Origin: an uncultured Bacilli bacterium
Lineage (GTDB): Bacteria; Bacillota_I; Bacilli_A; RF39; UBA660
Length of the DNA stretch: 64,000 nt
Direction of reading: 5' to 3'
Assembly: GCA_934089255.1 (NCBI GenBank)
Contig: CAKOJI010000001.1
Coordinates: forward strand, 14,572 to 78,571
Of the stretch, positions 7,108 through 62,427 are shown in pieces. How positions within the stretch are numbered: position 1 is the first letter of the stretch; each line of letters opens with the position of its first letter. The notes beneath the pieces are model-generated. The model saw only the letters and a program-made list of their open reading frames with translations. It did no database searches and was not told where the DNA came from. Both the position numbers and the translations under genes were made by a program.

Positions 7108-9261
7108 ATGAAAAACAAGAAAGGTTTTACAATAATAGAAATAATTGTTTGTATTGCTTTAATAGTATCAATTGCTGCTATTTCAATAATTACTATTAAT
7201 AAAAATAATGAAAATGCTAAAAAGGAATCAAAACTTGTTAATGAAGTAATTAATAGTAGTTTAGTTTATTATGATAAACATACAATAAATGAAAATGATC
7301 TTATTGAAAAAAATGGATATACAACTATATACATAGATAATTTAATAAATGATGGACTAATAGATGAAAAATATTATAATTCAATAGAGAAAACAACTAA
7401 TTTTGATTTTGGAAGAATTCTTATTTCCTATGATTTTTCAACAGGTATGAGAAATGTTTACTATCCTTATTCTGATAATGAAAAAAATAGCACTATTTTT
7501 AAAACTATATATTTACAAAATGGAGAAGAATTTGATTGTAATGCTAAAGATATAATTGAAAATAAAATTTTAGGAGATCAGCAATATTTACAGTCTGTTG
7601 ATATTAATTCTTGCGATTCTAGTAAAATAGATTATACTAATACTAGTAACACACAATATGTTTATTTTAATTATACAGTTACAGAAACCGATGTAAAAGG
7701 TAAAACAATTTCAGTTACTAAAAAAGCAAAATTACCAGTTCAAATACTTAAACAGTTTGATGCAAATGATTTTGAATGTAATTTATATGATACAAATTAC
7801 AATTTAATAAATATTTTAAATGAAAATGAAACAAAACTATTAAATCAAAGTAGCATTAAATATTCATTTACTTTAAAAGAAGAAGATAATGATAATTTAA
7901 ATGATTACAGTAATAATTTAAATATTGAATATAAAAGTGATGATGAACCTGCTGAAAATTATAAAGGTACGTTTATAAAAAAATTAATAACTGAAGAGTT
8001 TGACAAAGAATATAATTGGACTCCGAATGTAAAAGCAATTATATATCCTAATTATTTTCCTAAAAATAAATCTGATAATATGGATATTTATGAGGAAAAT
8101 TTAAAAAGCATTGAATTATATGATATAGATTTAATTGGAAGCAAAATAAAATATATGAATGAAACACATACATATAATTTAAATTTTTACATTAATAAAT
8201 CTAATTATTCATCTATTAAAAATGATTTGGAAAGTATTGAGAAGAATTTAAATAGTCTTAAAAATGGTAAAAAATATAATTTTAATTATAATTCAATTGA
8301 TGATAAAAAAGAATTTAATTTAGAATCTTTCAAAATAAGTTGGGCTAAAGATGATGTGACCGATGTTGATACCATTGGAACTCTAGGAAACTTAATGATA
8401 TTGAATGTAACTACTAATGACGGAGATGAAAATAGCTATCATACTATACTGTATAATATGGTTGATAATTCTTATGATATTTTATTTCCACAATACTATA
8501 AACGACCACTAAAGAATTTTAAATATGATGATAACTATTTATATGCATATTATATTTATTCATATCGTAATTATAATGCGATTTATAATAATAAAAAATG
8601 TAATGGAACTACAAGACATTTTACTCAATATTTTTATGATAAATTTAAATTATTGAAAGATAATGGCTATTATTCTGGAATTGATTTAGATGATGTTGAA
8701 AGAGTTGATGATCTTAATGAAACATCATGTGGTGGATCACATGCTTATAGTCCGAATTTTAAAAAATATAATGAATTAAAAACAATTTACAATAATGAAA
8801 ATTTAAATAAAATTGGTTCTAAAGTATCTGATTTTATAAAAACTGTTAGTGATAATGACACAAAAGATATAAAAGGTGAAATACATGATAAATACAAATA
8901 TGTGATATGTAACCAAGGAAAAAATTATTGTGATGGTGGACGGTATTATCTATCAAAATCTGAAATTTATAAGAGTTACTATATGAAATATTATTATAAA
9001 TTAAACAATAGAGAGAATTATATTTTTGTATTAAATGATGATAGTGAATATATGAAAATTTATAAATATAGTTTTGGACATGATGATAATTATGATTTAA
9101 CTAATATACCTGATAATGAAGCTGATTATAATTTTGTTGTCATACCTAATGAATCATCTGATAAAGTAAAATTTTCTTCAGATATAAAAAATAACAAAAA
9201 TAATTATGTAATAACTGAATATAATATAGAGGATATAAAAAATAAAATTAATAATTTATAA
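7108..9261 (+). CDS. giant type IV prepilin-like (class III signal) protein, 717 aa
   Basis: Likely start MKNKKG|FTIIEIIVCIALIVSIAAISIITI: short basic leader, G-F cleavage site, Glu at +5, 20-aa hydrophobic helix. GGAAAGGA RBS. ATG sits 1 nt after the HerA-like stop (translational coupling). Asn/Tyr-rich body with multiple Cys pairs. Confidence 0.7.
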   Translation: MKNKKGFTIIEIIVCIALIVSIAAISIITINKNNENAKKESKLVNEVINSSLVYYDKHTINENDLIEKNGYTTIYIDNLINDGLIDEKYYNSIEKTTNFDFGRILISYDFSTGMRNVYYPYSDNEKNSTIFKTIYLQNGEEFDCNAKDIIENKILGDQQYLQSVDINSCDSSKIDYTNTSNTQYVYFNYTVTETDVKGKTISVTKKAKLPVQILKQFDANDFECNLYDTNYNLINILNENETKLLNQSSIKYSFTLKEEDNDNLNDYSNNLNIEYKSDDEPAENYKGTFIKKLITEEFDKEYNWTPNVKAIIYPNYFPKNKSDNMDIYEENLKSIELYDIDLIGSKIKYMNETHTYNLNFYINKSNYSSIKNDLESIEKNLNSLKNGKKYNFNYNSIDDKKEFNLESFKISWAKDDVTDVDTIGTLGNLMILNVTTNDGDENSYHTILYNMVDNSYDILFPQYYKRPLKNFKYDDNYLYAYYIYSYRNYNAIYNNKKCNGTTRHFTQYFYDKFKLLKDNGYYSGIDLDDVERVDDLNETSCGGSHAYSPNFKKYNELKTIYNNENLNKIGSKVSDFIKTVSDNDTKDIKGEIHDKYKYVICNQGKNYCDGGRYYLSKSEIYKSYYMKYYYKLNNRENYIFVLNDDSEYMKIYKYSFGHDDNYDLTNIPDNEADYNFVVIPNESSDKVKFSSDIKNNKNNYVITEYNIEDIKNKINNL

Positions 9262-10847: not shown

Positions 10848-12239
10848 GTGTTAATTTTGAAAAATTTTAAATATTTTTTAGTTGGTATTAGTTTATTTTC
10901 TCTGCCAATACTTGTTAATGCAGCAAGCATTACTTTAGAGGGAACGCCTGATGGAAATACTGCTATTTATGATGTAAAATATAATCCAGAAAGTAATCCT
11001 ACTGATACAATTAGTTTAAAAATAAATAAAACAAATGATGATTTAGTTTATGAATTAAAAAGTGATTACGGTACTTGTGATAAAAACTTAGAATGTACTT
11101 TAATTACTACAACTATAGAAAGTGAAGCAACACTTGCAAAATTAACTATAAAAAACAGTACTGCAGAAAGTAAAGAAACTACAATAACTGTAGGCGGAAC
11201 TATTTCAGGTGCAACAAAGACATTTACATTAAAAGCTGGACAAACAACAACAAAAGCATTAAAAGATACTACCGATGTATCCAACATAACATTTTCGGTT
11301 GGTACTTTAGATAAAACATTTAGTAAAGATGTTTCAGATTATACAGTAACTGGTATAAAAGATACAATTAATTCTGTTACTGTTACTCCAAATTGTACTA
11401 ATAACTGTAGTTGGTCTTTAAATAATCAAGAAAAAACACAAAGTGGTATAAGAGTTCCATTACAAACTGGTGCTAATGAAACTGAAATAAAAATATATGC
11501 TGAAAATGGTAATTTAGTTAAAACTTATAAATTTAATATTTATAGGGGTGAAATTACCACTAGTTCTGCATACTTAGAATCAATAAAAATAAAAGATGGT
11601 GTAATAAGTCCAACTTTTAGTTCAATGGTAAACGATTATACAGCTAAAATAAAGTTTAAAAAGAATGAAAAATTAAATAAATTAGATATTACAACTGTTA
11701 CTGAAGATCCAACTGCTAAAGTAGAAATAAAGGGTAATGAAAATTTAAAAGAAGGAGAAAATACTATTACTATAACAGTAACAAGTAGTGATGGCGAAAA
11801 TAAACAAGTTTATACAATTATTGCAACATTAGAAGAAGAAAAAGAAGATATAAAAAAAGTTACTACTAATAAAGTTGCAAAGAAAAAAAATAATACTTGG
11901 TTAATTATATTATTATCTGTATTAGGTTTAGGTGTAATTATAACTTCATTTATACTAATCTTTAAAAAGAAAAAGAATAAAAATAAAGATAATAACCATA
12001 AAGATGATAATAATGGTATAAAAGAAACTAAAGAAGAAGAAAATATACAAGATGAGTCTCAAGAAGATGATCTATTAGATATGGAAATGTCTGATATAGA
12101 AAAAGAAAATACAGATACTCTAAGAATATTAGAAAAAACTAAGCAAGAATTAAGAGAAGAGCCAAAACAAGACGTTGATGAAGCTTTAGATGATTTAATG
12201 AAAACTAAAAAGTTAGAACTTGGAGATTTAGACTTTTAA
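10848..12239 (+). CDS. secreted type I membrane protein with cadherin-like beta-sandwich repeats and an acidic cytoplasmic tail
   Basis: Signal peptide ...SLPILVNA|AS. Repeats such as SAYLESIKIKDGVISPTFSSMVNDYTAKI resemble cadherin-like beta-sandwich domains. TM WLIILLSVLGLGVIITSFILIF followed by KKKKNKNK and a D/E-rich tail. Start may be TTG 10857 (AAGGA RBS) rather than GTG 10848. Confidence 0.6.
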   Translation: MLILKNFKYFLVGISLFSLPILVNAASITLEGTPDGNTAIYDVKYNPESNPTDTISLKINKTNDDLVYELKSDYGTCDKNLECTLITTTIESEATLAKLTIKNSTAESKETTITVGGTISGATKTFTLKAGQTTTKALKDTTDVSNITFSVGTLDKTFSKDVSDYTVTGIKDTINSVTVTPNCTNNCSWSLNNQEKTQSGIRVPLQTGANETEIKIYAENGNLVKTYKFNIYRGEITTSSAYLESIKIKDGVISPTFSSMVNDYTAKIKFKKNEKLNKLDITTVTEDPTAKVEIKGNENLKEGENTITITVTSSDGENKQVYTIIATLEEEKEDIKKVTTNKVAKKKNNTWLIILLSVLGLGVIITSFILIFKKKKNKNKDNNHKDDNNGIKETKEEENIQDESQEDDLLDMEMSDIEKENTDTLRILEKTKQELREEPKQDVDEALDDLMKTKKLELGDLDF

Positions 12240-18987: not shown

Positions 18988-19854
18988 CTAATTTCTAGGA
19001 AAATATTCCATATAATCACTTTTTAACTTTTGATTAGATAAATGAGTATATATTTGAGTAGTACTTATACTTTCATGGCCTAAAAATTCTTGTATAATTC
19101 TTAAATCTGCACCATTTTCTAACATATGAGTTGCAATACTATGTCTTAATGTATGAGGAGAAACATCTTTTTTTATATTAGCTTCTAACGTCCTTTTTTT
19201 TAACATTTTAAAAACGCCTTGCCTAGTCATTTTTTTACCATGATTATTTAAATAGACATAATTATTTTGTTCTTTTTTAACTAAACAATGTCTATAATCT
19301 TTTACATATATTTTTAAGTATTTAATTGCAGTATCGTTAATAGGGACAATTCTTTCTTTACTACCCTTCCCCATTATTCTAACAATACAATCGTTTAAAT
19401 CAATATTTTTAAATTCTAAATTTACAAGTTCACTTATTCTTAATCCTGTTGCATATAATAGTTCTAATAATGATTTATTTCTAGCGCTGAATGCATCTTT
19501 AATTTCAATATTTAATAATTTATCTATTTCATCTATAGTTAGATAAGTGGGTAAATGTTTTTTTAACTTAGGACTATCAATTAATAATATAGGATTTTCT
19601 TTTAACATTCCAATTTTTATATAATAATTATAAAATGTTTTAAAACTACTTAGGTAATTGCTAATACTACTTGATTCTAAATTTAAACTAGAAATAAAAT
19701 GCTCTATATCTTTGCTACTTAATTTTAATAAATCTTTATTTATATTATTTGATAAAATACTTAAATTATTTTGATAAGTATTAATAGTATTTTTAGAATA
19801 ATTTAAATCCATTTCTAAATATAATAAAAAATCATTTATATAATTGTCATTCAT
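18988..19854 (-). CDS. tyrosine recombinase XerC/XerD family
   Basis: C-terminal HTLRHSIATHMLENGADLRIIQEFLGHESISTTQIYTHL (R-H-R-Y catalytic core), 288 aa. Confidence 0.8.
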   Translation of the reverse strand: MNDNYINDFLLYLEMDLNYSKNTINTYQNNLSILSNNINKDLLKLSSKDIEHFISSLNLESSSISNYLSSFKTFYNYYIKIGMLKENPILLIDSPKLKKHLPTYLTIDEIDKLLNIEIKDAFSARNKSLLELLYATGLRISELVNLEFKNIDLNDCIVRIMGKGSKERIVPINDTAIKYLKIYVKDYRHCLVKKEQNNYVYLNNHGKKMTRQGVFKMLKKRTLEANIKKDVSPHTLRHSIATHMLENGADLRIIQEFLGHESISTTQIYTHLSNQKLKSDYMEYFPRN

Positions 19855-31349: not shown

Positions 31350-33503
31350 TTATTTTATAGTGTAAGGATTTGTTTTTGTTCCATTTCCACTAGAAATTTG
31401 TATTCCTGATTTTAAATTTATTGTAGGTCTAAAAGTAGCTTCAGATTGAACAGAATATCCCAAAGATACATCAAAATTACCTTCATCCCCATATGTAAAT
31501 ACATAATCGTTCCAAGCAATATCAAGATAAACATTAGGAGAAATAGACCACCAAATTAATTTATTATTTTTCGCATAATTATTCAGCAAATAATGAGTGT
31601 AATTAGGTGCATCAGTAGTGCCTGCAAAAGACATTTCATCTGCTGTTAATGTTCCTACATATATTTCAGTATTATCATTATATTTATTTATTTTTGTTCC
31701 TGTACAGATTAGTGACGGCTTCTTATTTGTATAAATTCGTGTATTTGTTGCATAACAATAATCAGTATTCTCATTATAAAAACTACAAGAAGCGCCATTG
31801 TCATCAAAACATAAATTATTTGTTTTTAAATAATTGCTTACTGATTTACCAGTTCCTACTTTTGTTCCTAACATGGTTTGGAAATTTTTTAATGAATCAA
31901 AAAGTCCAACAAATCCATCTTCCTTTCCACCTGTATTATTTAAAAAGTCAAGAGATTTACAATCACTAGCTCCTTCATAACCATATACAATAGTATTTCC
32001 ATCACTCCAGTTACCAGTGTATGAAGAACTATTACATTCTGCACTTCTATCTTCTAATATTAACTTTGTAGAACCATCACCTTCAATTCTTACAATTTTC
32101 CAACACATTCCTGCAAAATTTACATAATTATCTTTAACGTCGCCTCTATAATAATAACTTGTTCCATTATCGTCTGGAGTTATACTTAAGGTACTCTCTC
32201 TAGATTCTGTTTTTAATGAACTACTACTTATTGTTGAATATTTTATAGTAGTTGTTATATCAGAAACATTAGTTGATATTTTATATATAAAATTTTGATT
32301 TTGAGTATCTGATAAAGTTGGTTTATCATAACTCCGTACTGCATATTTTCCTACTAAATTACTAACCATTGATGTTGTATATTTACTAGTTGCAACTATT
32401 GGATTTACCAAAGTAAATTTGCCAGTATTTTCATCAACTGTATAATCATCTGCATATGAAATATAATAATTGGTTGCACTACTCCATGATGAAGTGAATG
32501 ATGTTGGATCAGTTCCTTTTAAAACTTTTGAGGAAGATTCTTCAGCAGGTTTAGTTTTAGGTGTTTTTAAAAACTCTGTTCCATTTGTTTTATTTTTTGC
32601 ATTAGTTAATATATTATAAGCAAGTGTTCCTTCTTCAAATGGCATATAATCTTTTACATCACCTATATCAGTTGTTAATGTACTTGATATATTTGTTATA
32701 TTTATACTTATTGTTTGTGTATCACTTGTTACTGTTATCACATCTCCATTTACACTAGATGTAGAACCTTTATTGATTGTTATTTGTTTACTTCCTTTTA
32801 TTGTTCCTTTAGAATCTTTTACATATAAAGTATGAACTCCTGGTTCTACTGCTGGTATAAAATATTTGTTATCTCTTATTTGACTTGTTTTTGGATTACT
32901 TTGCATTTCTACATAGTCTCCGCTTGTTGCATTTGTAACATTACCAGTTATATCAACTATATCTGCTAAGTTATATATTTGTACTTTTGCAGATATGGTT
33001 TTATTCATATCTTCACTTTGATCTATATTCATTTCTTTATAGACTACTTTTAATTCATAACTTTGTGTTTCATTTACATCTATATTATTTGTTACAAGCA
33101 TTCCATTTTGTGTTGGAAATGATGTTTCAGTTTTACCATTACAAGTCTTTCCACTCACACTACTTGTACAAGTTAAAGTATATACCATATCACTTGTTCT
33201 ACTTAGTGTATTTACTAATTCTTCTAAATATACTGCATAGTTGTTTACAGTTGCATTTCCTTCATTTTTAACTGTAAACGTTTTAGTATCTATTGTTGTA
33301 CCAGGCTGTATTTTTTCTGCAGTTATATCCCCGTTTCCATCTCCGTATGTTAATTTTAAATCTGCTGTTGTAACACTTATAGATTTAGTATTTGTGTTAC
33401 CTTGTATTCTAGTTAAAAAGTATGCATATGTTAATCCTACAAGTATTAGTAACACTATAAATATTCCTGTTACACTTATTATAATCTTTTGTTTTCTATT
33501 CAT
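31350..33503 (-). CDS. large secreted protein: SipW-cognate-type signal, TasA/camelysin-like N-domain, shared C-terminal module (paralog P1)
   Basis: MNRKQKIIISVTGIFIVLLILVGLTYAYF resembles the SipW-cognate class signal (GGGT[FW]A[AF]F pattern). Following segment LKLTYGDGNGDITAEKIQPGTTIDTKTFTVKNEGNATVNNYAV is TasA-like. C-terminus YYYRGDVKDNYVNFAGMCWKIVRIEGDG...GNGTKTNPYTIK. GGAAGGTGAG RBS. Confidence 0.7.
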   Translation of the reverse strand: MNRKQKIIISVTGIFIVLLILVGLTYAYFLTRIQGNTNTKSISVTTADLKLTYGDGNGDITAEKIQPGTTIDTKTFTVKNEGNATVNNYAVYLEELVNTLSRTSDMVYTLTCTSSVSGKTCNGKTETSFPTQNGMLVTNNIDVNETQSYELKVVYKEMNIDQSEDMNKTISAKVQIYNLADIVDITGNVTNATSGDYVEMQSNPKTSQIRDNKYFIPAVEPGVHTLYVKDSKGTIKGSKQITINKGSTSSVNGDVITVTSDTQTISINITNISSTLTTDIGDVKDYMPFEEGTLAYNILTNAKNKTNGTEFLKTPKTKPAEESSSKVLKGTDPTSFTSSWSSATNYYISYADDYTVDENTGKFTLVNPIVATSKYTTSMVSNLVGKYAVRSYDKPTLSDTQNQNFIYKISTNVSDITTTIKYSTISSSSLKTESRESTLSITPDDNGTSYYYRGDVKDNYVNFAGMCWKIVRIEGDGSTKLILEDRSAECNSSSYTGNWSDGNTIVYGYEGASDCKSLDFLNNTGGKEDGFVGLFDSLKNFQTMLGTKVGTGKSVSNYLKTNNLCFDDNGASCSFYNENTDYCYATNTRIYTNKKPSLICTGTKINKYNDNTEIYVGTLTADEMSFAGTTDAPNYTHYLLNNYAKNNKLIWWSISPNVYLDIAWNDYVFTYGDEGNFDVSLGYSVQSEATFRPTINLKSGIQISSGNGTKTNPYTIK

Positions 33504-33700
33504 TGTATCTCACCTTCCTAAACACAAAAAATTATATTATATATATCCTCTTTAAAAGCGATCTAAAAGGTTGACAAATTTCTATGAGAGGAAAGTTATA
33601 TAATTTTTTATAATAAATAGATTTTTTTATTTTGCTAACGTTGAGTAGTTTGCTACCCTAGTAAAAATATATCATTATTTAATTATTTTTTAAATATATT

Positions 33701-35089
33701 TTATTCTATAACGTAAGGATCTTCTTTAGTACCTAACCCTGTAACTGTAACATTATTTTTTATATTTATTACAGGTCTAACATTTAATTCGTTTTCTACA
33801 TCACTTGCTTCTATACCCGTCTTACTATTAAATCCTACTACTTTAGCACAATTATTATCAAAACTATATGGTGTCATAGTCCACCAATTAGTACCATTAT
33901 TTAAATAAGTTTCTGTTTTATTTGAAGTAGCATAATACAATTCTTCAGCACTTAATAATCCAATATTAAGTTCATATTTAGAAAAATCTAAATCATTACA
34001 AATTAATATTTTATCATTAGAAGTGTATTTGTATAATGTTTCATTTTTACCATACCCTAAATAAGTTTCTATAATACCTTTATTACCACAATAACTATTT
34101 TTTACAATACTATTATAATTAATAAGTTCTGTACTATAAAAATTATCTAACGTATTCTTTATAACACTATTATTAACATTTTTATGTGTTAATTCATAAC
34201 TACTACTATTTACATCCCCATACGTATAACCAACATAAGCATTATCATTATTTAATGAATTAAATTTACTTAATCCAATAGTATCATCTAATATTAAACG
34301 TACAGTATCATTACCATTAATTCTAACTATTCTCCATAACTTATCAGCTATCAAAACATAATTATTATTAACGTTTCCCTTATAATAATAAGTTACTCCA
34401 TAATTATCTTCTATTTTATATAAATTAGATTCAATATTACTATCAATATCTAATTCAGGATTAATTGGTAATTCTACTATATTTCTTGATTTTAATATAG
34501 TTTCAATAGTAGGTAAAATATTTGTTTTATTATAATTTATTTCATTAATATATTTATTTATAATTTTATATTGTAAAGATTCTTTATTATTTTCATATAA
34601 TTCATTACTATATTCTATATCATATTTATTAACACTATTTATATTATTTATTTTTAAATAGTTATCTATATCATAATTTAATGTAGTATAATTACTATCT
34701 AATTTAAAATCAACTACTATATCTTTATCACTTAAATTACTTACTTTTAAATATATATCTTTTTCTTCTGATTCATTTAAAGAACCATATATATTGTTAT
34801 TAGTAGTATTAACTACTGATACAGAAAAATTATCATTAGATGTAGCAATTAAGCCATAATTAATACTAACTTTACTTGTATTTTTTATTTTTTCTTTAAT
34901 AACGTATTCTTTATTAGCTTCCAAATTTAAACTAGTAATACTTAAATCAGTAGTTATAGTAGGTACTGTAGACGTTACTACATCTTTTTCTTCAGTTTGG
35001 ACAAATAAACTATAACTTAAATTTAATACATAACAACCTAATATCATAACAATTGCACTTAGAAAATATATTTTTTTAGTCTTGTTCAT
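33701..35089 (-). CDS. secreted protein with SipW-cognate-like signal and the shared C-terminal module (P3)
   Basis: MNKTKKIYFLSAIVMILGCYVLNLSYSLF..., then YYYKGNVNNNYVLIADKLWRIVRINGND...GLGTKEDPYVIE at the C-terminus. AGGAG RBS. Confidence 0.65.
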   Translation of the reverse strand: MNKTKKIYFLSAIVMILGCYVLNLSYSLFVQTEEKDVVTSTVPTITTDLSITSLNLEANKEYVIKEKIKNTSKVSINYGLIATSNDNFSVSVVNTTNNNIYGSLNESEEKDIYLKVSNLSDKDIVVDFKLDSNYTTLNYDIDNYLKINNINSVNKYDIEYSNELYENNKESLQYKIINKYINEINYNKTNILPTIETILKSRNIVELPINPELDIDSNIESNLYKIEDNYGVTYYYKGNVNNNYVLIADKLWRIVRINGNDTVRLILDDTIGLSKFNSLNNDNAYVGYTYGDVNSSSYELTHKNVNNSVIKNTLDNFYSTELINYNSIVKNSYCGNKGIIETYLGYGKNETLYKYTSNDKILICNDLDFSKYELNIGLLSAEELYYATSNKTETYLNNGTNWWTMTPYSFDNNCAKVVGFNSKTGIEASDVENELNVRPVINIKNNVTVTGLGTKEDPYVIE

Positions 35090-41573: not shown

Positions 41574-42197
41574 TTATTCTTTATTTATTAATACACCAAC
41601 ATAAACCGTTTGTGTTTCATTATTATTTTTTGTGCACGTAATTAACGTTACATTAGATTTATCTTTATATCTTTTTATTTCTACTTCTCCAGTTTTTGGT
41701 ACTTCATAGATATTCCCTATTTGATAAGTATATTTAATATTATTATATTCTATAATAACTACATCCCCAACAGATAAATTATGTAATTTATTAAAATATG
41801 AAACACTAGAATTACCAGAATGTGCTGCAAATATAACATTACCATTTTCTGTATCAGGATAATCTGATGCACTTAATATACTTATATTTTTATTTATAGT
41901 ATTATATGGACTATCTTTTTTAGTAAAACCTTTTTTTAAATTTATTTTAGGTATAGATAGATACCCAATATAAACACTCTCATTATTTTCATTAAAACTA
42001 TAACTAGTATCTGGTTTATCCCCTGAATTATTCTCATTTAATGATATATCATCATTACTAATTGGTTCATTATAATATAATTCATTCATATAGTCATATA
42101 CCATAATTTTCTTCTCTTTAAAATACTCAGAACCAAAAATTACTATTCCAACTATAAGAATTATAAAACTAAATATTATTTTTAGATTTCTTGACAT
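41574..42197 (-). CDS. sortase-fold transpeptidase-like protein (His and TLITC Cys present, canonical Arg not evident)
   Basis: N-terminal TM anchor; YIGYLSIPKINLKKGF beta-strand; FAAHSG His; VTLITC catalytic Cys motif. Overlaps upstream substrate gene by 29 nt. Confidence 0.6.
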   Translation of the reverse strand: MSRNLKIIFSFIILIVGIVIFGSEYFKEKKIMVYDYMNELYYNEPISNDDISLNENNSGDKPDTSYSFNENNESVYIGYLSIPKINLKKGFTKKDSPYNTINKNISILSASDYPDTENGNVIFAAHSGNSSVSYFNKLHNLSVGDVVIIEYNNIKYTYQIGNIYEVPKTGEVEIKRYKDKSNVTLITCTKNNNETQTVYVGVLINKE

Positions 42198-43848
42198 TTA
42201 ATATTACCAAATATAAACCAGTACTTATTACTATAGCTCCTACAATATATTTTAAAGTTGCATTTAAACTAGTTATAGGACAATCAATAACATTACTTAA
42301 CCACTCTACAGTAGTTGTAGTATTAACTTCATTAGTTATTTCTATATCTTCATCATCTACATAATATGTATTATTTTCTTCATCATATTTTATATCATTA
42401 TTATTATCATCAATAATAGTATCTTGATAATTCTTTTTAGATAAACTTATACTATTTGCAAACACATAATCATCTTCATATTTTACTAATAAAGAGCCAT
42501 TATTAGTTACTTTAAAATATAATTTATCTATTTTATTTTTAGTATCAATAATATAATAAATTCCTTCTGTTAATTCAATTTCATAATTAGTATTATTACT
42601 TCTATAACTATTAACTAAAACTCCAGAATTAGAATAAATTTTTATAATATTAGCACTATCATCTAAATCATTATATATGTTAATTTTTCTTTTTTTATCT
42701 TCTTCATTATTATTTATATTACTATTTTCTTTAACATCAACATATTGAATACTATTTGTATCTTTTACTTCAAATTTTGTCTTAGTTGGTAAATTATAAT
42801 TATTAGTATTAGTTTTATTTACTAAAGTATAAACTCCTTTACCTAATACATTTTTTAATTCTACATAATTATTTCTAGTAGTAAAAGTTTGTACTAAATT
42901 ATCACTATAACAAGTACTATTAGTACAGTCACCACTATATATATTGTATGTTAAACCACTTATAAAATTTTCATTATCATTTAGAATACTAATTCTAACA
43001 TTAGTACTACCAATTCCTTTTATATTAGCAGGGATACTTGCTTCCACGTTATTATAATTATTAGTATAGACTCTACCATATATTACACTATCATTACCAT
43101 AATTTGAATAACTATAAGTAGTATTATTATAAGCACTTCCGCTACTATAAATTTCAAAATCTTTTTCATTTATAGTAGTTAAACTTGAAACAGGTATTCT
43201 AACTTGGAATGATCCTTCTCCGTTACTACTTACTGTATTATTAATTATTGAACTACTTGTTGGAGCATTGTATAGACTAACACTTGGAGTATTTCTTAAA
43301 TTATTTGTTCTAACATTAATTACATTTGAATAATAATAGTTTCCATTTTTCGTAAATGTTACATCTTTATTTATGAAATCAATAGTACTATTATTTTTTC
43401 CATATATTTTAGCATCATTAAATAACTTATTTATAAAATAACAAAAAGTATCTGTAGTATTAGAAGAAATAGTTTCTTTTAAAGTACTACTTATATTATT
43501 AGTTCCCTTTAAATAATCTTGATACATAAGTATAGCAGCTTGTGCTATATAATAATTTTTGTAACTACTATTTGTTACATTACTATTATTGATTATATAA
43601 GTAAATCCTGGATCTGTTACTACTGCATTAGTTAATGTAGTGCTTGTATTAAAATATGTACCATAATTTAATACATAAACATTATAACCACTAGCTTGAT
43701 TATAATAAATAGGTAACCCACTTATATACTCATAACTATTACCTGTATTATAAACAGATATACTATTTGGATAACTTGCCGCATTTACTGAAGTTGCAAA
43801 ACATATTATAGATAATATGCTTAATAAAATTTTAGAAAATCTTTTCAT
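42169..43848 (-). CDS. secreted Asn/Tyr/Ser/Thr-rich surface protein with C-terminal TM + KKSK tail
   Basis: Sec signal ...ATSVNA|AS. C-terminus ...CPITSLNATLKYIVGAIVISTGLYLVILNVKKSKNNI has sorting-signal architecture but no LPXTG. AGAGGTG RBS before MKRFSKILL. Confidence 0.6.
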   Translation of the reverse strand: MKRFSKILLSILSIICFATSVNAASYPNSISVYNTGNSYEYISGLPIYYNQASGYNVYVLNYGTYFNTSTTLTNAVVTDPGFTYIINNSNVTNSSYKNYYIAQAAILMYQDYLKGTNNISSTLKETISSNTTDTFCYFINKLFNDAKIYGKNNSTIDFINKDVTFTKNGNYYYSNVINVRTNNLRNTPSVSLYNAPTSSSIINNTVSSNGEGSFQVRIPVSSLTTINEKDFEIYSSGSAYNNTTYSYSNYGNDSVIYGRVYTNNYNNVEASIPANIKGIGSTNVRISILNDNENFISGLTYNIYSGDCTNSTCYSDNLVQTFTTRNNYVELKNVLGKGVYTLVNKTNTNNYNLPTKTKFEVKDTNSIQYVDVKENSNINNNEEDKKRKINIYNDLDDSANIIKIYSNSGVLVNSYRSNNTNYEIELTEGIYYIIDTKNKIDKLYFKVTNNGSLLVKYEDDYVFANSISLSKKNYQDTIIDDNNNDIKYDEENNTYYVDDEDIEITNEVNTTTTVEWLSNVIDCPITSLNATLKYIVGAIVISTGLYLVILNVKKSKNNI

Positions 43849-43877
43849 ATCACACCTCTTTTTTCTATTTGGCACCT

Positions 43878-47263: not shown

Positions 47264-48481
47264 TTAAGAACAATTATTGATTAACTCATAAGGCTCATCT
47301 TTAGTACCTTCACTATTTGTAAAATTATAACAATTTTTCAATTTAATAATTGGCACTATATATAACTTAACATCTTTACAAACGCTATATTCAAACCTTC
47401 TATCTACATTATGTGGATTCACAAATAATAAATCATCATTACCTTCTTCAGCAGATGCAATGTATTGAAATAATGCGTAAGTTCCCACTGATAAAATATA
47501 TTCATCATCATTTTTTGTATATTTACTAAGTAAATCTATTATATAATTTCCATCATTACTATTAGCATTTTTAAGTGTTTCTACATCAATTAGTCCAATA
47601 TTCGTTTCATAAGTTTGATATCTAGTATAAGATGATTTATCTGGCATATATGTTTCAAATACTTTTTGTCTAAATTTTTCAGGATAATTTGAATACTCAT
47701 TTATATATGTATGCCAATTATTATTATAATCAAAATAGGTATCACCAGCTTTGAAAACATCTATACCAGTAACATATTTTATATTTAATTTACTATCATT
47801 TATACTCATATTTGTACATTCTCCTAAAACACTCCAATCATTACTTGTACAACTTTTACTTACAAGTTCTTTGGGAGTTAATTTTATTACACTTTCTTTA
47901 TCATTTGCTATTAAAAAGACATTTCCATTAGTAATTTCTACTATACGCCATAATCTTTCATTTAATTTCACAAAATTTTTAGGATTTTCTCCTTTTGCTA
48001 CATAGTCTTCCTTATTTGTTATAGCATTATTAGAAGAAACGCCATTATCTCTAGGACATATATATATTACTTTGCTACCATCTAGTTCTTTTAAATCCCA
48101 TTTTTTAAACACTTCTATTCCTATAACATTATTTTCACAATCAAATTTTCCAGCTGTTGCTAATACTGCATTAGATAACATAAAGTAATTTTCTTTATAA
48201 TCTACTTTCATATCATCTTTTATTAACCCTTCATTTTTTAATGTTTCCAAAGTTACTAAAGCAGCTTTCGCATTTTTATTTAAATTAGTTGTGATTTCTT
48301 TATGATTTGAAACATAAACTTGTAATGCATTTTCTAACTTTTTTTCATTTGCTTTCAATATATTAATTTCTCTTGTTTTATTAGTTTTTAAAACTACAAC
48401 GGTTACGGAAACACCTATAATTACAATTAAACTAATACATATAATAATTTCAATTAATGTAAAACCTCTTTTATTCTTCAT
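47264..48481 (-). CDS. type IV prepilin-like protein with shared C-terminal module (P4, 405 aa)
   Basis: MKNKRG|FTLIEIIICISLI class III signal. Later ...LNERLWRIVEITNGNVFLIANDKE...EGTKDEPYELINNCS. Confidence 0.7.
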   Translation of the reverse strand: MKNKRGFTLIEIIICISLIVIIGVSVTVVVLKTNKTREINILKANEKKLENALQVYVSNHKEITTNLNKNAKAALVTLETLKNEGLIKDDMKVDYKENYFMLSNAVLATAGKFDCENNVIGIEVFKKWDLKELDGSKVIYICPRDNGVSSNNAITNKEDYVAKGENPKNFVKLNERLWRIVEITNGNVFLIANDKESVIKLTPKELVSKSCTSNDWSVLGECTNMSINDSKLNIKYVTGIDVFKAGDTYFDYNNNWHTYINEYSNYPEKFRQKVFETYMPDKSSYTRYQTYETNIGLIDVETLKNANSNDGNYIIDLLSKYTKNDDEYILSVGTYALFQYIASAEEGNDDLLFVNPHNVDRRFEYSVCKDVKLYIVPIIKLKNCYNFTNSEGTKDEPYELINNCS

Positions 48482-48488
48482 AGTATCC

Positions 48489-48674
48489 CTACTTACTTAT
48501 TTTATTATTTTTTTCTTCAAAATTTATTTCTTTATTTTCTATCTTTTCCTTAACATCAGTAAGTTCTTCTTTATCCATTTCATCTATTACTTCATCTTCT
48601 TTATGTTCTTTTGCTTTTTTTAAAAACAATTCTTTTTCTTCTTCACTTAATATACCATCTTTAAAATTTATCAT
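48489..48674 (-). CDS. acidic 61-aa protein (copy A)
   Basis: MINFKDGILSEEEKELFLKKAKEHKEDEVIDEMDKEELTDVKEKIENKEINFEEKNNKISK; AGAAGGAGAA RBS; 100% identical to 50354..50539. Confidence 0.55.
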   Translation of the reverse strand: MINFKDGILSEEEKELFLKKAKEHKEDEVIDEMDKEELTDVKEKIENKEINFEEKNNKISK

Positions 48675-48714
48675 ACCTATTCTCCTTCTAAAATAATTAT
48701 ACTATATTTATTAT

Positions 48715-48829
48715 TTATTTTCTAGGTATAGTATGTAAATATACTCTTTTTAATTCTTCATTGGACACATGAGTATATATACTAGTAGTAGATAAAGATA
48801 CATGACTTAAAAGTTCTTGAACACTTTTT
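48715..48829 (-). pseudogene. 3'-terminal remnant (38 codons) of tyrosine recombinase gene within a direct repeat
   Basis: Identical (1 mismatch) to the 3' end of the recombinase at 50580..50694; similarity ends abruptly at 48830. Confidence 0.7.
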
Positions 48830-48915
48830 TATTAAAAAATACATATTTCGTAATAGTACGCAAGTATAAAATGATAAAAAAATAAGGTTTTACCTAGGAC
48901 AGCATTTTACTTATT

Positions 48916-50346
48916 TTATTCACTTATGATATATGGATCAGTTTTAGTTCCATTCCCACTTAGAACTTTTATATTATCATTAATAACATAGGCAACTCTA
49001 ACGTATGTATACTGAAGAGCACTATGAACACCATCTTCTCCTGGACTTTCTGCTATATCCACATCGAAAGTTAATTCATCTTCAATACTACCATAATCAA
49101 ATAAATTTAAATAATCAACTTCATATTTTATATGTTTGGGATTATATATACCAGATCTTAAATATTCTTGATATGTAAGTAGTCCAAAATCAGATGATAC
49201 TTTAGTTTCGCTATTGCATTTAAAATTTGTTAAATTATTTTTATTAATATTAGTGTCATAACTATCGCCACACCATTTATAATTTTTATTTATATATTTT
49301 GTTAACATATTTTGTATATTATCTTCATAATGAGTTTTAAGTGGTTTATAAACATATTCATATACAGGACTACTTAATGTTACAGTTTCTTGACAATATT
49401 CCCTACTACTAGTAGTTTCACATACTAAAACTTGTTCTGTACTGTCACTCCAACTTTCTATCTCCTTTGTATCATTGTTTGCTTTACAAGAACATCTCGT
49501 TGATTTATTAGGATAAAGATGAGTTATTGAATATTTAGAAGTATCAATTCTACCATAATTTGAATTTCCACTGTAACTAGTAAAAAAATATACAGAAGCA
49601 CCATTAGTAAGAACATTATTATTAGATAAAAGAATTTTTTCATCTTCAATAATCTTAATACCATCATTCTCAGTAGTTCTAACTATTCTAAATAACTTAT
49701 CTAATCCTTCAAATTTAATATAGTTATTATCAACTTTTCCCTTAAAATAATAAATATCTTCTAAATTTTCATCATCACTAATATTTTTTCCATGTGATAA
49801 ACACAAACTATTAGTTTCTAAACTATTTTCACAGTTAGTATTATATCCTTGTTTTAACATCTTATTAATTAAAAGTGATTCATCACTACTACCACTTTTA
49901 TTAGAATTATAAGGACATAAATAAACTACATTATCTTTTTTTGTTTCCCAATTAACTGTATACTCAAGCACATTAGCTCCACATTCTTTATCTGTAGAAC
50001 CTTTTATAGAATTAGTAATCCAAACTAAATAAGATTTATCATCTTCTAATTTATATTCTTTTTCTAAAGTTTTATATAATTTTTCATCTACATAACCTTT
50101 ATTTACTAATTCACTTACATTAATTCTAGCACCTTTACCACCATTATTTATTCCATACTCATATGTATTTCCTTGATCATCTTTTTCAGTAGCAATATAA
50201 ACATTTGCTGCTTCTAATATTTTCTTAGTTATATTACTATAATCTTTATTTTTAGTAAAAATTACTATACTTATGGTAGATATAATAGCAATTAAACTAA
50301 TACATATAATAATTTCAATTAATGTAAAACCTCTTTTATTCTTCAT
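48916..50346 (-). CDS. type IV prepilin-like protein with shared C-terminal module (P5, 476 aa)
   Basis: MKNKRG|FTLIEIIICISLI; C-terminus YYFKGKVDNNYIKFEGLDKLFRIVRTTENDG...GNGTKTDPYIISE. Confidence 0.7.
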   Translation of the reverse strand: MKNKRGFTLIEIIICISLIAIISTISIVIFTKNKDYSNITKKILEAANVYIATEKDDQGNTYEYGINNGGKGARINVSELVNKGYVDEKLYKTLEKEYKLEDDKSYLVWITNSIKGSTDKECGANVLEYTVNWETKKDNVVYLCPYNSNKSGSSDESLLINKMLKQGYNTNCENSLETNSLCLSHGKNISDDENLEDIYYFKGKVDNNYIKFEGLDKLFRIVRTTENDGIKIIEDEKILLSNNNVLTNGASVYFFTSYSGNSNYGRIDTSKYSITHLYPNKSTRCSCKANNDTKEIESWSDSTEQVLVCETTSSREYCQETVTLSSPVYEYVYKPLKTHYEDNIQNMLTKYINKNYKWCGDSYDTNINKNNLTNFKCNSETKVSSDFGLLTYQEYLRSGIYNPKHIKYEVDYLNLFDYGSIEDELTFDVDIAESPGEDGVHSALQYTYVRVAYVINDNIKVLSGNGTKTDPYIISE

Positions 50347-50694
50347 AGTATCCCTACTTACTTATTTTATTATTTTTTTCTTCAAAATTTATTTCTTTAT
50401 TTTCTATCTTTTCCTTAACATCAGTAAGTTCTTCTTTATCCATTTCATCTATTACTTCATCTTCTTTATGTTCTTTTGCTTTTTTTAAAAACAATTCTTT
50501 TTCTTCTTCACTTAATATACCATCTTTAAAATTTATCATACCTATTCTCCTTCTAAAATAATTATACTATATTTATTATTTATTTTCTAGGTATAGTATG
50601 TAAATATACTCTTTTTAATTCTTCATTGGACACATGAGTATATATACTAGTAGTAGATAAAGATACATGACCTAAAAGTTCTTGAACACTTTTT
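50289..50694. repeat. 406-bp direct repeat copy B
   Basis: See copy A. Confidence 0.85.
50354..50539 (-). CDS. acidic 61-aa protein (copy B)
   Basis: Identical to 48489..48674. Confidence 0.55.
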   Translation of the reverse strand: MINFKDGILSEEEKELFLKKAKEHKEDEVIDEMDKEELTDVKEKIENKEINFEEKNNKISK

Positions 50695-51449
50695 AAATCA
50701 CATCCCTCATTTAATAACATAGTAGCAAAAGAATGTCTAAACGTATGTGGTGTAACTAATAAATCACTACTAGACTTTAATAATACCTTATCAATAATAT
50801 CTCTAACTCCTCTTGTAGTTAATTTATTACCTAAATGATTCACTAATAAATATTCACACTTTTTATTTTTTAAAATAGAATCTCTTACTCTTAAATAATT
50901 ATTCAAACTATCTATAGCATAACTTCCTAAATATACTATACGTTCTTTATTACCTTTACCAAGTACTTTAATTTCTCGATTTGTAATATCAATATTACAT
51001 AATTTTATATTAACAAGTTCATTAACTCTACACCCAGTACAAAGTAATAATTCAAATATACACCTATTCCTCATACCTAAATTACTATTAGTATCTATAC
51101 TATCTAATATCTTAACATATTCATCATATTTAAAATAATTTGGTAACTTTTTTTCTTTACTCATACTATTAACTAATTTAAATGGATTATTTTTAACAGA
51201 TTTATTTTTTATTAAATAATCATAATACATTCTTAAACTACTTAAACTTCTATTTATACTAGATGGTTTATGTGTTTGTTTCAAATAAGATATATAACTT
51301 AAAACATCTTTATATTGAATACTATTATAACTCTTATTAACATTTTTTAAATATTCTTCAAACTTATTAATATCTATCTCATAATTTAATACAGTATTAT
51401 CACTATATTTTTTAATACTAGTTAAATAATTTAAAAATTCTTCTAACAT
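50580..51449 (-). CDS. tyrosine site-specific recombinase (Xer/integrase family), directly upstream of pilin cassettes
   Basis: [39 protein letters not shown] catalytic C-terminus; 289 aa. Confidence 0.8.
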   Translation of the reverse strand: MLEEFLNYLTSIKKYSDNTVLNYEIDINKFEEYLKNVNKSYNSIQYKDVLSYISYLKQTHKPSSINRSLSSLRMYYDYLIKNKSVKNNPFKLVNSMSKEKKLPNYFKYDEYVKILDSIDTNSNLGMRNRCIFELLLCTGCRVNELVNIKLCNIDITNREIKVLGKGNKERIVYLGSYAIDSLNNYLRVRDSILKNKKCEYLLVNHLGNKLTTRGVRDIIDKVLLKSSSDLLVTPHTFRHSFATMLLNEGCDLKSVQELLGHVSLSTTSIYTHVSNEELKRVYLHTIPRK

Positions 51450-56406: not shown

Positions 56407-58569
56407 CTATGATATTACGTAAGGATTTGAAATAGTTCCGTTTCCACCAGTTATTTGAACTCTAGACAAGAGAGTTACTGCGGAACGAGAATAGACATCG
56501 TCATAATTGACTGAACTGCTGCCAAGAAATCCAACTTCAGAAAGTTGATAAGCGTCACCGATACCACTATTAGCAATATAGTAAAAAGAAGAAAGCCCCC
56601 ACCACGTTAAGGGATTATTCCTTGTATAACTATTCATTAAATAATGAGTAGAATTAAGTGAACCAGTAGCACCTGCAAACGACATTTCATCTGCTGTTAG
56701 TGTTCCTACATACATATCTGAATCATCTTTATATTTATTTAATTTTGTTCCTTTACACACTAGTGATGGTTTTTTATCTACTTCTATTCTTTTATAAGCA
56801 CCATAATATTCATCAGTATACCAGCCATTTGTTGCTTCATTTTCTTCATATACAATATTATCATTATCATCGAACCCATAACTTTCAGTACTAGCCACGC
56901 TATGATCAAAACACCAGTTGTCTACTTTCAAATAATCACTTAATGATTTATTAGTTGTTAATTTAGAACTTAATGTCGTTTGAAAACTCTTTAATGAGTC
57001 TGCTAATCCTCCAGAATAATTTAAAAAGTCTGCTTTACCATTTGTATCATAACCAAATGCAACTTTTGTTCCATCACTCCAATTTCCAGTATATGACGAA
57101 CTATTACATTCTGTATTTCTATCTTCTAATATAAGTTTTGTAGAACCGTCTCCCTCAATTCTTACAATTCTCCAACACATTCCTGCAAAGTTTACATAGT
57201 TATCTTCTACTCCACCTCTATAATAATAACTTGTTCCATAATCATCTGCAGTTACGCTTAATTCTTTTTCTGTAGATTTTTGATCTGCAATTATGTTTGC
57301 ATATTTTATGTTAGAAGTTATATCAGATACATTAGTTGATATTTTATATATATAATTTTGATTTTGAGTATTTGTTATTGTTGGTTTATTAGTACTCCAT
57401 ACTGCATATTTTCCTGCTAAACTACTTGCCAGTGATGTTGTATATTTACTAGTTGCAACTGTTGGATTTACTAAAGTAAATTTACCAGTTGTTTCGTTTA
57501 CAGTATAATCATCTGCATATGAAATATAATAATTTGTTGCGTTCCATAATGTTGAGGTAAATGATGTCGGAGCAGTTCCTTTTAAATATAAAATTGAACT
57601 TGTTTCTTCCGCAGGATTTGTTTTAGGGGTTTTTAAAAACTCTGTTCCATTTGTTTTATTAATTGCATTAGTTAATATATTATAAGCAAGTGTCTCTTCT
57701 TCAAATGGCATATAATCTTTTACATCACCTATATCAGTTGTTAACGTACTTGAAATACTCGTTATATTTATGCTTATTGTTTGTGAATCACTTGTTACTG
57801 TTATCACATCTCCATTTACACTAGATGTAGAACCTTTATTTATTGTTATTTGTTTACTTCCTTTTACAGTGCCTTTAGAATCTTTTACATATAGTGTATG
57901 AACTCCTGGTTCTACTGCTGGTATAAAATATTTGTTATCTCTTATTTGACTTGTTTTTGGCGTACTTTGCATTTCTACATAATCTCCTGTTGCTGCATTT
58001 GTTACTGTTCCTGTTATATCAACTATGTCTGATAAGTTATATATTTGTACTTTTGCTCCAATAGTCTTATTCATGTCTTCACTTTGATCTATATTCATTT
58101 CTTTATAGACTACTTTTAATTCATAACTTTGTGTTTCGTTTACATCTATATTATTTGTTACTAGCATACCATTTTGTGTTGGAAATGATGTTTCAGTTTT
58201 ACCATTACAAGTTTTTCCACTTACACTACTTGTACAAGTTAAAGTATATACCATATCACTTGTACGGCTTAATGTATTTACTAACTCTTCTAAGTACACT
58301 GCATAATTATTTACAGTTGCATTTCCTTCATTTTTAACTGTAAACGTTTTAGTGTCTATTGTAGTACCTGGTTGTATCTTTTCTGCAGTAATATCACCAT
58401 TACCGTCTCCGTATGTTAGTTTAAGATCTGCTGTTGTAACACTTATAGACTTAGTATTAGTATTTCCTTGTATTCTTGTTAGAAAGTATGCATAAGTTAA
58501 TCCTACAAGTATTAGTAACACTATAAATATTCCTGTTACACTTACTATAATTTTCTGTTTACGATTCAT
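56407..58569 (-). CDS. large secreted protein, paralog P2 of 31350..33503
   Basis: Signal and TasA-like N-domain are ~95% identical to P1 over the first ~300 aa (of ~480 aa of colinear similarity) and ~80% over the remainder up to ~480. C-terminal ~230 aa diverge but keep the WRIVRIEGDG...GNGTISNPYVIS module. Confidence 0.7.
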   Translation of the reverse strand: MNRKQKIIVSVTGIFIVLLILVGLTYAYFLTRIQGNTNTKSISVTTADLKLTYGDGNGDITAEKIQPGTTIDTKTFTVKNEGNATVNNYAVYLEELVNTLSRTSDMVYTLTCTSSVSGKTCNGKTETSFPTQNGMLVTNNIDVNETQSYELKVVYKEMNIDQSEDMNKTIGAKVQIYNLSDIVDITGTVTNAATGDYVEMQSTPKTSQIRDNKYFIPAVEPGVHTLYVKDSKGTVKGSKQITINKGSTSSVNGDVITVTSDSQTISINITSISSTLTTDIGDVKDYMPFEEETLAYNILTNAINKTNGTEFLKTPKTNPAEETSSILYLKGTAPTSFTSTLWNATNYYISYADDYTVNETTGKFTLVNPTVATSKYTTSLASSLAGKYAVWSTNKPTITNTQNQNYIYKISTNVSDITSNIKYANIIADQKSTEKELSVTADDYGTSYYYRGGVEDNYVNFAGMCWRIVRIEGDGSTKLILEDRNTECNSSSYTGNWSDGTKVAFGYDTNGKADFLNYSGGLADSLKSFQTTLSSKLTTNKSLSDYLKVDNWCFDHSVASTESYGFDDNDNIVYEENEATNGWYTDEYYGAYKRIEVDKKPSLVCKGTKLNKYKDDSDMYVGTLTADEMSFAGATGSLNSTHYLMNSYTRNNPLTWWGLSSFYYIANSGIGDAYQLSEVGFLGSSSVNYDDVYSRSAVTLLSRVQITGGNGTISNPYVIS

Positions 58570-61977: not shown

Positions 61978-62427
61978 ATGTGTAATGAGAAAAATACAAA
62001 TTGCATCGGAGAAATATTAAAAGTTATACTTGTTCTTCAACAAAACGCATCCCCAGAAAGTTGTTTAGATTCTTGTGACAGACCTATGCTTGGAGGAGGA
62101 CCTAGCTGTCTAGTATGCAATACTCGTCCAGTAATGTTATATACTTGCTGTGGTAATGGAACACCTTGGAGTATGCCAATAGAAAAAGATAGCACTAATG
62201 TATGTTCTAATACATCAGTAAGTGCTTGTTGTTCTGATTGTTCTAATATATTTAGAGTTGAAAAATTAGATGGAAATTGTTGTACATTTAGAGTATTAGC
62301 ACCAAACCCACAAGAAAGTTGTTGTAACTCTATTCCTTACATTGCAACAAATAGTTTCTTCACAATGGATTTATCCTGCTGTTGTGCAATTAAATGTTTA
62401 AGTGACACTTATGTAGATTGCGTTTAA
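61978..62427 (+). CDS. cysteine-rich spore coat/exosporium protein, CotZ/CotY family
   Basis: CIGEILKVILVLQQNASPESC, IFRVEKLDGNCCTFRVL and FTMDLSCCCAIKCLSD align with B. subtilis CotZ blocks (CVREAVENIEDLQNAV.., FFRVERVHGSCATLSLL, IEVDLDCFCAINCLNP). Confidence 0.75.
   Translation: MCNEKNTNCIGEILKVILVLQQNASPESCLDSCDRPMLGGGPSCLVCNTRPVMLYTCCGNGTPWSMPIEKDSTNVCSNTSVSACCSDCSNIFRVEKLDGNCCTFRVLAPNPQESCCNSIPYIATNSFFTMDLSCCCAIKCLSDTYVDCV

Follow-up and report, generated by a model that had tools for sequence, protein, structure and literature searches.

Modular pilins, as defined in the text of a global survey, join an N-terminal pilin module to an extra module that is not specific to pilus biology, and that text counts more than 1,200 of them in 264 architectures, several with carbohydrate-binding modules (PMC8179133). 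They show how a simple filament gains functions by acquiring an effector domain. Fibres of the TasA family have so far been studied as biofilm scaffolds. DUF6273 domains, present in phage receptor-binding proteins that are targeted by diversity-generating retroelements (DGRs), have independently been called C-type-lectin-like (PMC10743442). Modular pilins, TasA fibres and DUF6273 are each already known, and the literature searched described no TasA-superfamily carrier with effector modules and no head family common to TasA-type and pilin carriers. Here we describe five genes, A to E, in a 64,000-nucleotide stretch of the chromosome of an uncultured Bacilli bacterium (contig CAKOJI010000001.1 of assembly GCA_934089255.1; this whole stretch is called the window below), whose products have one C-terminal module in common and carry it on two kinds of N-terminal region.

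All five open reading frames (ORFs) are present where a preliminary description of this DNA had placed them, and all lie on the minus strand: A at 31350..33503 (717 residues), B at 33701..35089 (462 residues), C at 47264..48481 (405 residues), D at 48916..50346 (476 residues) and E at 56407..58569 (720 residues, a paralogue of A). We propose, with a probability of about 0.55, that A to E are surface-displayed, fast-evolving binding heads of lectin fold, borne on carriers of two kinds that serve polymerisation or export.

A homologous C-terminal module in the five proteins

Pairwise BLAST comparisons related the five proteins to different degrees. A and E are 74% identical over their full length and 98% identical in residues 1-185. 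B matched A with an E-value of 4e-15 (A 436-717, B 220-462) and E with an E-value of 1e-12 over the C-terminal 250-290 residues, while its match to D (1.6e-8) covered the N-terminal part of the module only. The comparison of A with C reached only 0.035, and that of A with D was likewise weak. These weak values, in a genome of about 22% GC whose proteins are compositionally biased, are what would be expected if the similarity were an artefact of N/Y/K-rich, low-GC composition, an outcome that the preliminary description had itself envisaged.

In order to exclude both circularity and compositional bias, a module profile was built from 78 module sequences of non-prepilin carriers only, C, D and all matches of the D search being left out, and scores were compared with those of composition-preserving shuffles. 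D scored 45.0 bits (E 6e-16; profile 20-272 of 272, residues 196-475) and C scored 22.3 bits (E 5e-9; profile 23-270, residues 160-399), whereas the best of 300 shuffles gave 0.1 bits for D and 5.8 bits for C. Both matches are collinear along the full length of the profile, and the fold of the module is confidently predicted. In addition, a third prepilin protein of the window, F (7108-9261), which has the same composition, gave no match to this profile (-65 bits). The shuffle test thus refuted the compositional explanation, to which we leave practically no credit.

Taken together, these results indicate that the five ORFs have a homologous C-terminal module of approximately 250-290 residues, beyond any bias in composition. 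The sequence motifs noticed beforehand correspond to conserved columns in an alignment of 37 sequences, namely YYxRGxVxNNYVxFA..WRIVRI, GLLTADE, RPVINLK and the C-terminal GxGTxxxPYxI. By profile matches and alignment, the module occupies residues 431-717 of A (31353..32213), and it lies at residues ~144-405 of C (47267-48052), where it is divergent, at residues 184-476 of D (48919-49797) and at 56410-57285 in E, all on the minus strand.

The module has a predicted C-type-lectin fold of the DUF6273 type

The module of B was modelled with AlphaFold2 (AF2) over residues 210-462 (33704..34462, minus strand), with a mean predicted local distance difference test (pLDDT) of 89.5 and a predicted template modelling score of 0.87. 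Structure comparison of this predicted model gave the fold of a solved DUF6273 domain, and its topology is that of an alpha/beta C-type-lectin domain. The best structural match was the DUF6273 N-terminal domain of the immunoglobulin A (IgA) protease of Thomasclavelia ramosa (PDB 9qa6). Since a search of the module sequence against the PDB returned no match, this kinship is visible at the level of the fold only. In Pfam, B matched DUF6273 (PF19789) with 24.2 bits for the whole protein and 25.5 bits for the module alone (gathering score 23.5; profile 103-171 of 172), while A, C, D and E individually gave no PF19789 match. Five of the 37 module-family members matched at E<=1, and coverage of the Pfam profile was limited to its C-terminal half. 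The module, which the preliminary description had not been able to assign to a named family, has a real and confidently predicted fold of ligand-binding type, C-type-lectin-like and of the DUF6273 superfamily. Judged by these comparisons, it is a divergent DUF6273 subfamily with its own N-terminal YYxRG...WRIVRI and terminal GxGTxxxPYxI.

Its plan is a conserved core with a hypervariable, indel-rich middle. The family is very large, with 13,064 representatives at 50% identity for E<=1e-3 and 3,864 for E<=1e-30, and it is often found in 2-11 copies per protein. The giant proteins P0307 (4,905 residues) and P0308 (3,528 residues), as well as other top matches, carry 7-11 tandem copies, and the terminal GxGTxxxPYxI may be an inter-domain joint in such arrays. 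No phage family of PHROGs matched the module. Nor was a DGR found in the window, in which no ORF resembled a reverse transcriptase and no template/variable repeat pair was present; the direct repeats of at least 80 nucleotides in the window were limited to the A/E paralogy and to a cassette found upstream of C and D.

In the gut, the module would most likely serve as an adhesin that attaches to glycans or surfaces. A module that is no adhesin, being either an enzyme-associated or catalytic C-type-lectin fold (similar to FGE, EgtB or PvdO) or a regulatory domain such as the N-terminal domain of the M64 IgA protease, is a highly improbable alternative. It is true that the top structural match belongs to a protease and that the canonical calcium-sugar motifs of lectins (EPN/QPD and WND) are absent when the B module is read from its sequence; the same absence is seen in other bacterial binders of C-type-lectin fold. 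However, catalysis by the protease resides in another domain, M64, and the matched domain is dispensable for IgA cleavage (PMC12402451), and folds of enzyme type scored far below the DUF6273 match, and also below adhesin and lectin matches. The hypervariable middle, together with a raised ratio of nonsynonymous to synonymous substitution rates (dN/dS), suits a diversifying binding surface and not a catalytic site, and fusions to pilin and fibre carriers or to giant arrays of 2-11 copies suit binding domains exposed at the surface.

C and D as modular type IV pilins

The N-termini of C and D read MKNKRG|FTLIEIIICISLI..., where the bar marks the predicted cleavage site; the signal of both runs MKNKRG|FTLIE. 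The preliminary description had proposed a class III prepilin signal here, and both proteins passed the family thresholds, with 27.6 and 31.3 bits for PF07963 (cut-off 21.2) and 22.0 and 27.6 bits for TIGR02532 (cut-off 16.3) for C and D, respectively. They carry the full class III consensus, with Gly at -1, Phe at +1 and Glu at +5. A profile of the pilin N-terminal region (175 residues) searched against PDB profiles matched Geobacter PilA-N (7.7e-9) and Streptococcus sanguinis PilE1 (8pfb, 5.9e-8), as well as Thermus thermophilus PilA and GspG, over profile positions ~2-62. Each of the two proteins consists of a pilin part of about residues 1-150/180 (in D, residues 1-183, 49798-50346, minus strand) followed by the DUF6273-like module, which corresponds to the definition of a modular pilin. 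On this evidence, C and D count as canonical type IV pilins of the modular class.

The third prepilin protein of the window, F (7108-9261, plus strand), has 717 residues, the N-terminus MKNKKG|FTIIE, a PF07963 score of 22.5 bits and a C-terminal region without Pfam match. Its gene begins 2 nucleotides past the stop codon of a HerA/DUF87-type ATPase gene (5352-7106, plus strand; PF01935, 74 bits). This spacing, which suggests translational coupling of a pilin-like gene with an ATPase that is HerA-like and not of the GspE type, was unexpected.

A proposed TasA-like carrier in A and E, and probably in B

A and E begin with MNRKQK followed by 18 hydrophobic residues and GLTYA|YF, while the N-terminus of B ends with NLSYS|LF and is followed by a domain of about 180 residues and then by the module. 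In A this signal is followed by an N-terminal beta-sandwich, two middle domains and the lectin-fold module. The carrier of A comprises residues 1-185 (32949..33503, minus strand) and that of E lies at 58015-58569 on the same strand. The motifs GLTYAYF and NLSYSLF are highly conserved among homologues. In 152 unique N-termini of non-prepilin module carriers, the motif [ST]-[YF]-[AGS]|x-[FYW] had S or T at -3 in 86% and A, S or G at -1 in 89%, a composition that agrees with the signal-peptidase rule and with the TWA|AF of TasA.

The family PF12389 (Peptidase_M73) matched 11 of 16 close homologues of A at E<=10, the best at 1.6e-6, and precomputed PF12389 matches were found on five homologues (P0112, P0115, P0116, P0256 and P0304). 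P0304, a homologous carrier, also scored 20.7 bits for the SipW-cognate signal family TIGR04088 (cut-off 19), for which Bacillus subtilis TasA, used as control, gave 41.1 bits. When the carrier profile was broadened with divergent carriers, the top PDB matches were TasA (5of1, 6e-4; 8aur, 1.8e-3) and the archaeal AbpX. A first, narrow profile of the A carrier had returned SAM-lyase structures, which were rejected as spurious; TasA came to the top only after the divergent carriers were added. The likeness to TasA and AbpX spans the conserved segment just after the motif, and residues 23-53 of A contain most of the invariant columns.

In the AF2 model of the A carrier (pLDDT 80.8), a helix at 3-34 is followed by a low-confidence stretch at 35-45 and by a jelly-roll beta-sandwich at 51-178. 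The post-signal segment is thus the most conserved and yet poorly modelled as a monomer, as a donor strand would look. The N-terminal domain of B could be related to that of A only by profile-profile comparison (hhalign probability 84%, E 8e-6, 83 columns).

Carriers and heads evolve differently

Between A and E, dN/dS was 0.03 in the carrier, indicating strong purifying selection, and 0.46-0.67 in the module, with comparable dS. Many of the homologues of A (n=971) show 87-95% identity confined to the N-terminal 42-49% of A.

The pilin genes gave a recombination breakpoint. A 5' cassette of 407 nucleotides is duplicated upstream of C (48424..48830, minus strand) and of D (50289..50695, minus strand) with approximately 99.5% identity. 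The identity ends at codon 19 and then falls to approximately 45%, right past the class III signal. The copy on the side of C contains the remnant of a recombinase 3' end, a small ORF of 61 residues, an untranslated leader and the first 19 pilin codons, and the copy upstream of D extends into a xer-like tyrosine recombinase gene (50580-51449, minus strand), whose genuine 3' end it includes. This gene is the source of the remnant (~115 nucleotides, 48716-48830, minus strand). Because of this remnant, a segmental duplication starting inside the recombinase gene probably gave rise to C or replaced its 5' end.

The small ORF of the cassette (48489-48674 and 50354-50539, both minus strand), directly upstream of C and D, encodes a highly acidic peptide (MINFKDGILSEEEKELFLKK...), is preceded by a ribosome-binding site of GGAG type and has no Pfam match. 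A second xer-like gene is located at 18988-19854. The association of a xer-like recombinase with a cassette recalls the inversion switches of Mycoplasma, an idea that was rejected: the two copies are repeated in direct and not in inverted orientation, and the 5' end is intact in each, so phase variation is not proposed.

Both fusions recur in related genomes

The closest genomes found in a scan of GTDB were metagenome-assembled genomes (MAGs) of uncultured gut 'Bacilli', with at most 64% identity to protein A; they derive from metagenomes of the Hadza gut and from goat colon, and also include UMGS1124 (binned as 'Tenericutes'). At loci L032 and L036, which come from two related MAGs, prepilin and TasA-type genes, each with the module, lie less than 10 kb apart. 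Among the top 150 module matches, 145 proteins were new, of which 38 carry the TasA-type motif and 5 a prepilin signal. Genes of the A type are expanded in relatives, with at least 8 and at least 12 loci in two MAGs, and their carriers also bear unrelated C-termini or stand alone (177 residues). The central observation of the preliminary description, one C-terminal module on two different N-terminal carriers in a single genome, is thus supported. Its judgement that this arrangement is unusual found no support in that form, in view of about 13,000 module representatives and of the recurrence of both fusions in other genomes.

One related MAG (JAZQIU010000005.1) encodes, at locus L020, a stand-alone TasA-like protein (5415-5963 of the locus, 177-182 residues) and a stand-alone prepilin of 149 residues (8432-8881 of the locus), among housekeeping genes (rmuC, murG, ftsQ, queH-like and ltaS-like). 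Each of these two proteins is a candidate for the major subunit of one filament type.

Proposed mode of display and alternative explanations

In the mechanism that we propose, the five genes would give extracellular proteins with a carrier-plus-head plan, in which the head would be a ligand-binding scaffold. In C and D, a prepilin peptidase would cut after Gly6 and the subunit would enter a type IV (or Com-like) filament by way of its hydrophobic alpha1 helix, leaving the head exposed, probably at the tip or in low abundance, in the manner of the modular pilins PilB and PilC of S. sanguinis. In A and E, and probably also in B, cleavage at [ST]-[YF]-[AGS]|x-[FYW] by a type I signal peptidase similar to SipW would free the highly conserved N-terminal segment as a potential donor strand. 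The protein would then become part of a TasA-like fibre, cap it or nucleate it, or would at least keep the head off the cell. Recombination close to the edge of the carrier would swap heads from one carrier to another, and the heads evolve quickly. What the data show is the homology and fold of the module, that C and D belong to the prepilin class, a recombination breakpoint, unequal selection on carrier and module, and the recurrence in relatives. Because no machinery motif was detected in the window or related loci, it is the cleavage of the A, B and E signals, the incorporation into filaments and the ligand that we infer.

Several results weigh against this proposal. A scored 18.1 bits for PF12389, under the cut-off of 22.5, and neither A nor B matched TIGR04088 at E<=10. 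The modelled helix 3-34 of A runs unbroken across the proposed cleavage site, which also suits an uncleaved membrane anchor. A Foldseek search of the A carrier against the PDB returned generic jelly-rolls only, which speaks neither for nor against homology to TasA, and the N-terminal domain of B taken alone gave no TasA signal and no informative match in Pfam or the PDB. The only biochemically studied DUF6273 domain, that of the IgA protease ThomasA, besides being dispensable for cleavage, is without known ligand. Among the ORFs of the window, A to E are not within a tapA-sipW-tasA-like or pil operon and have housekeeping genes around them. Finally, scans of the 64-kb window and of 41 related loci (~556 kb) found no S26 (sipW-like) motif, no GxGDxK motif of A24 prepilin peptidases and no Walker-A motif of GspE-type ATPases, an absence that is weak evidence because these were regular-expression scans and not profile searches. 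When the evidence for and against the carrier is taken together, part of the 'SipW-cognate/TasA-like' label given in the preliminary description can be kept. TasA-like is reasonably supported for A and E, by the near-threshold PF12389 scores and the profile matches to TasA and AbpX, the fold evidence being non-discriminating; B is probably TasA-like, indirectly, through its profile-profile match to the A-type domain; and SipW-cognate is not established, with no TIGR04088 match for A or B.

Many of these results would also be expected if the proteins were monomeric surface lectins held in the membrane and forming no fibres, the signals of A, B and E being uncleaved anchors, the N-termini of C and D anchors or pseudopilin-like stubs, and the intervening domains stalks. 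The continuous helix of A, a hydrophobic region of about 18 residues (enough to span the membrane), the missing TIGR04088 matches, weak matches to N-terminal anchors such as that of KdpC, the generic fold of the A carrier and the failure of scans of 42 sequences to show any dedicated peptidase or assembly gene nearby are in agreement with it. A simple anchor, however, has no need of the restriction to S/T at -3 and A/S/G at -1 seen in the 152 N-termini, nor for the segment right after the motif to be the most conserved part of the protein (carrier dN/dS of 0.03), and it is exactly on this segment that the similarity to TasA and AbpX falls. Moreover, the full class III consensus of C and D exists for processing and assembly, and stand-alone short subunits of both kinds, as expected of major subunits, are present in a related MAG. 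On this balance we consider membrane anchoring, the main alternative, doubtful, though with an appreciable chance of being correct.

The two sets of proteins might instead be coupled, the pilin-type proteins forming a type IV/type II-like secretion piston that exports the bulky TasA-type proteins across the cell wall, with the shared module reflecting interaction or co-evolution rather than independent display. A link of this kind has been published for Clostridium perfringens, in which the pilin PilA3 is required for secretion of BsaC, a product of the sipW-bsaA-bsaB-bsaC operon of the TasA family (PMC11580942), and pilin-type and TasA-type module genes lie less than 10 kb apart both in the window and in two related MAGs. 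In that precedent, however, the pilin is without a cargo module and the domain found in the secreted protein is another one (von Willebrand factor A, vWA), whereas C and D themselves bear the full head, which is better suited to display than to a piston. No operon unites the genes, housekeeping genes stand between them, and the machinery scans gave no motif in the window or the related loci. Such a coupling therefore appears improbable.

Beyond the reading of A to E as binding heads on two kinds of carrier, we put forward a wider and more tentative idea, which is possible at best: that TasA-superfamily fibre subunits have turned into modular carriers, the counterpart of modular type IV pilins, in a clade of very low-GC gut Bacilli that are uncultured and form spores, and that the two unrelated filament systems draw on one fast-evolving pool of heads of C-type-lectin fold, moved between them by recombination close to the edge of the carrier.

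Genomic setting

The window, with a GC content of approximately 22%, is chromosomal and contains rpsB, tsf, proS, thrS, obg, ppdK, recD2, ftsW, divIVA/sepF-like genes, a sortase gene and a CotZ-like gene. The neighbours of A to E are ftsW/rodA, proS, thrS and a YetF-like gene, all in housekeeping surroundings. The match to the spore coat protein CotZ (PF10612, 51.6 bits) concerns a cysteine-rich protein of 149 residues encoded at 61978-62427 (plus strand). It suggests spore formation in this gut lineage, which has a very low GC content and has in part been binned as 'Tenericutes'.

Other surface proteins are encoded in the window. The sortase gene (PF04203; 41574-42197, minus strand) overlaps the 3' end of 42169-43875 (minus strand), whose product of 568 residues is secreted, N/Y-rich and without Pfam match, and ends with a hydrophobic tail; this pair may constitute a third, sortase-dependent display system of the window. 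A further surface protein, secreted and encoded at 10848-12239 (plus strand), combines Cadherin-like beta-sandwich domains (PF12733) with a transmembrane segment at the C-terminus and a tail of acidic residues.

Significance and comparison with known systems

If TasA-like subunits do acquire effector domains as modular pilins do, and from the same domain family, the combination of a head with a carrier would be general among the surface filaments of Gram-positive bacteria. Beyond their role as biofilm scaffolds, TasA-like fibres would in that case serve adhesion by means of tips that can be exchanged, and heads could pass from one filament type to another. Display on filaments would also provide a first functional context for a huge uncharacterised family (~13,000 clusters, many of them giant multi-copy proteins) that is common in gut Firmicutes, in receptor-binding proteins of phages and also in one IgA protease. 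The expanded sets of paralogues in uncultured gut Bacilli (at least 8 and at least 12 loci in the two MAGs) are candidate host- or glycan-binding adhesins.

The arrangement recalls tip adhesins such as the Bacteroides type V fimbrial protein BACOVA_04982 (PDB 4eps) or FimH and PapG of chaperone-usher pili; assembly systems and phyla differ, so the likeness is one of design and not of membership. In comparison with the DUF6273 domains of the IgA protease (9qa6) and of the phage 'tentaclins' (PMC10743442), the window has neither a DGR reverse transcriptase nor a template repeat.

With TasA, camelysin, BsaA and the archaeal Abp proteins (PF12389; 5of1, 8aur; PMC9674648, PMC9245690, PMC11580942), A shares a hydrophobic signal that ends with a small-x-small site followed by aromatic residues (TWA|AF in TasA, TYA|YF in A), a conserved post-signal segment, the pattern PG...F.v.N.G in the first strands and, in its model, a jelly-roll beta-sandwich of generic kind. 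In contrast to TasA, A and E are 3-4 times longer, with two extra domains and the lectin-fold head. Their scores are under or near the family cut-offs, and neither sipW nor tapA lies next to them.

The modular pilins of S. sanguinis, PilB with its vWA module and PilC with its concanavalin-A-like lectin module (PMC8179133, PMC9934059), resemble C and D in having a class III signal, a small pilin module and a bulky C-terminal module for which ligand binding is predicted. C and D differ from them in a head of DUF6273/C-type-lectin fold, which falls outside the architectures quoted in the text of the survey, and in that the same head is found in one genome on a carrier that is not a pilin.

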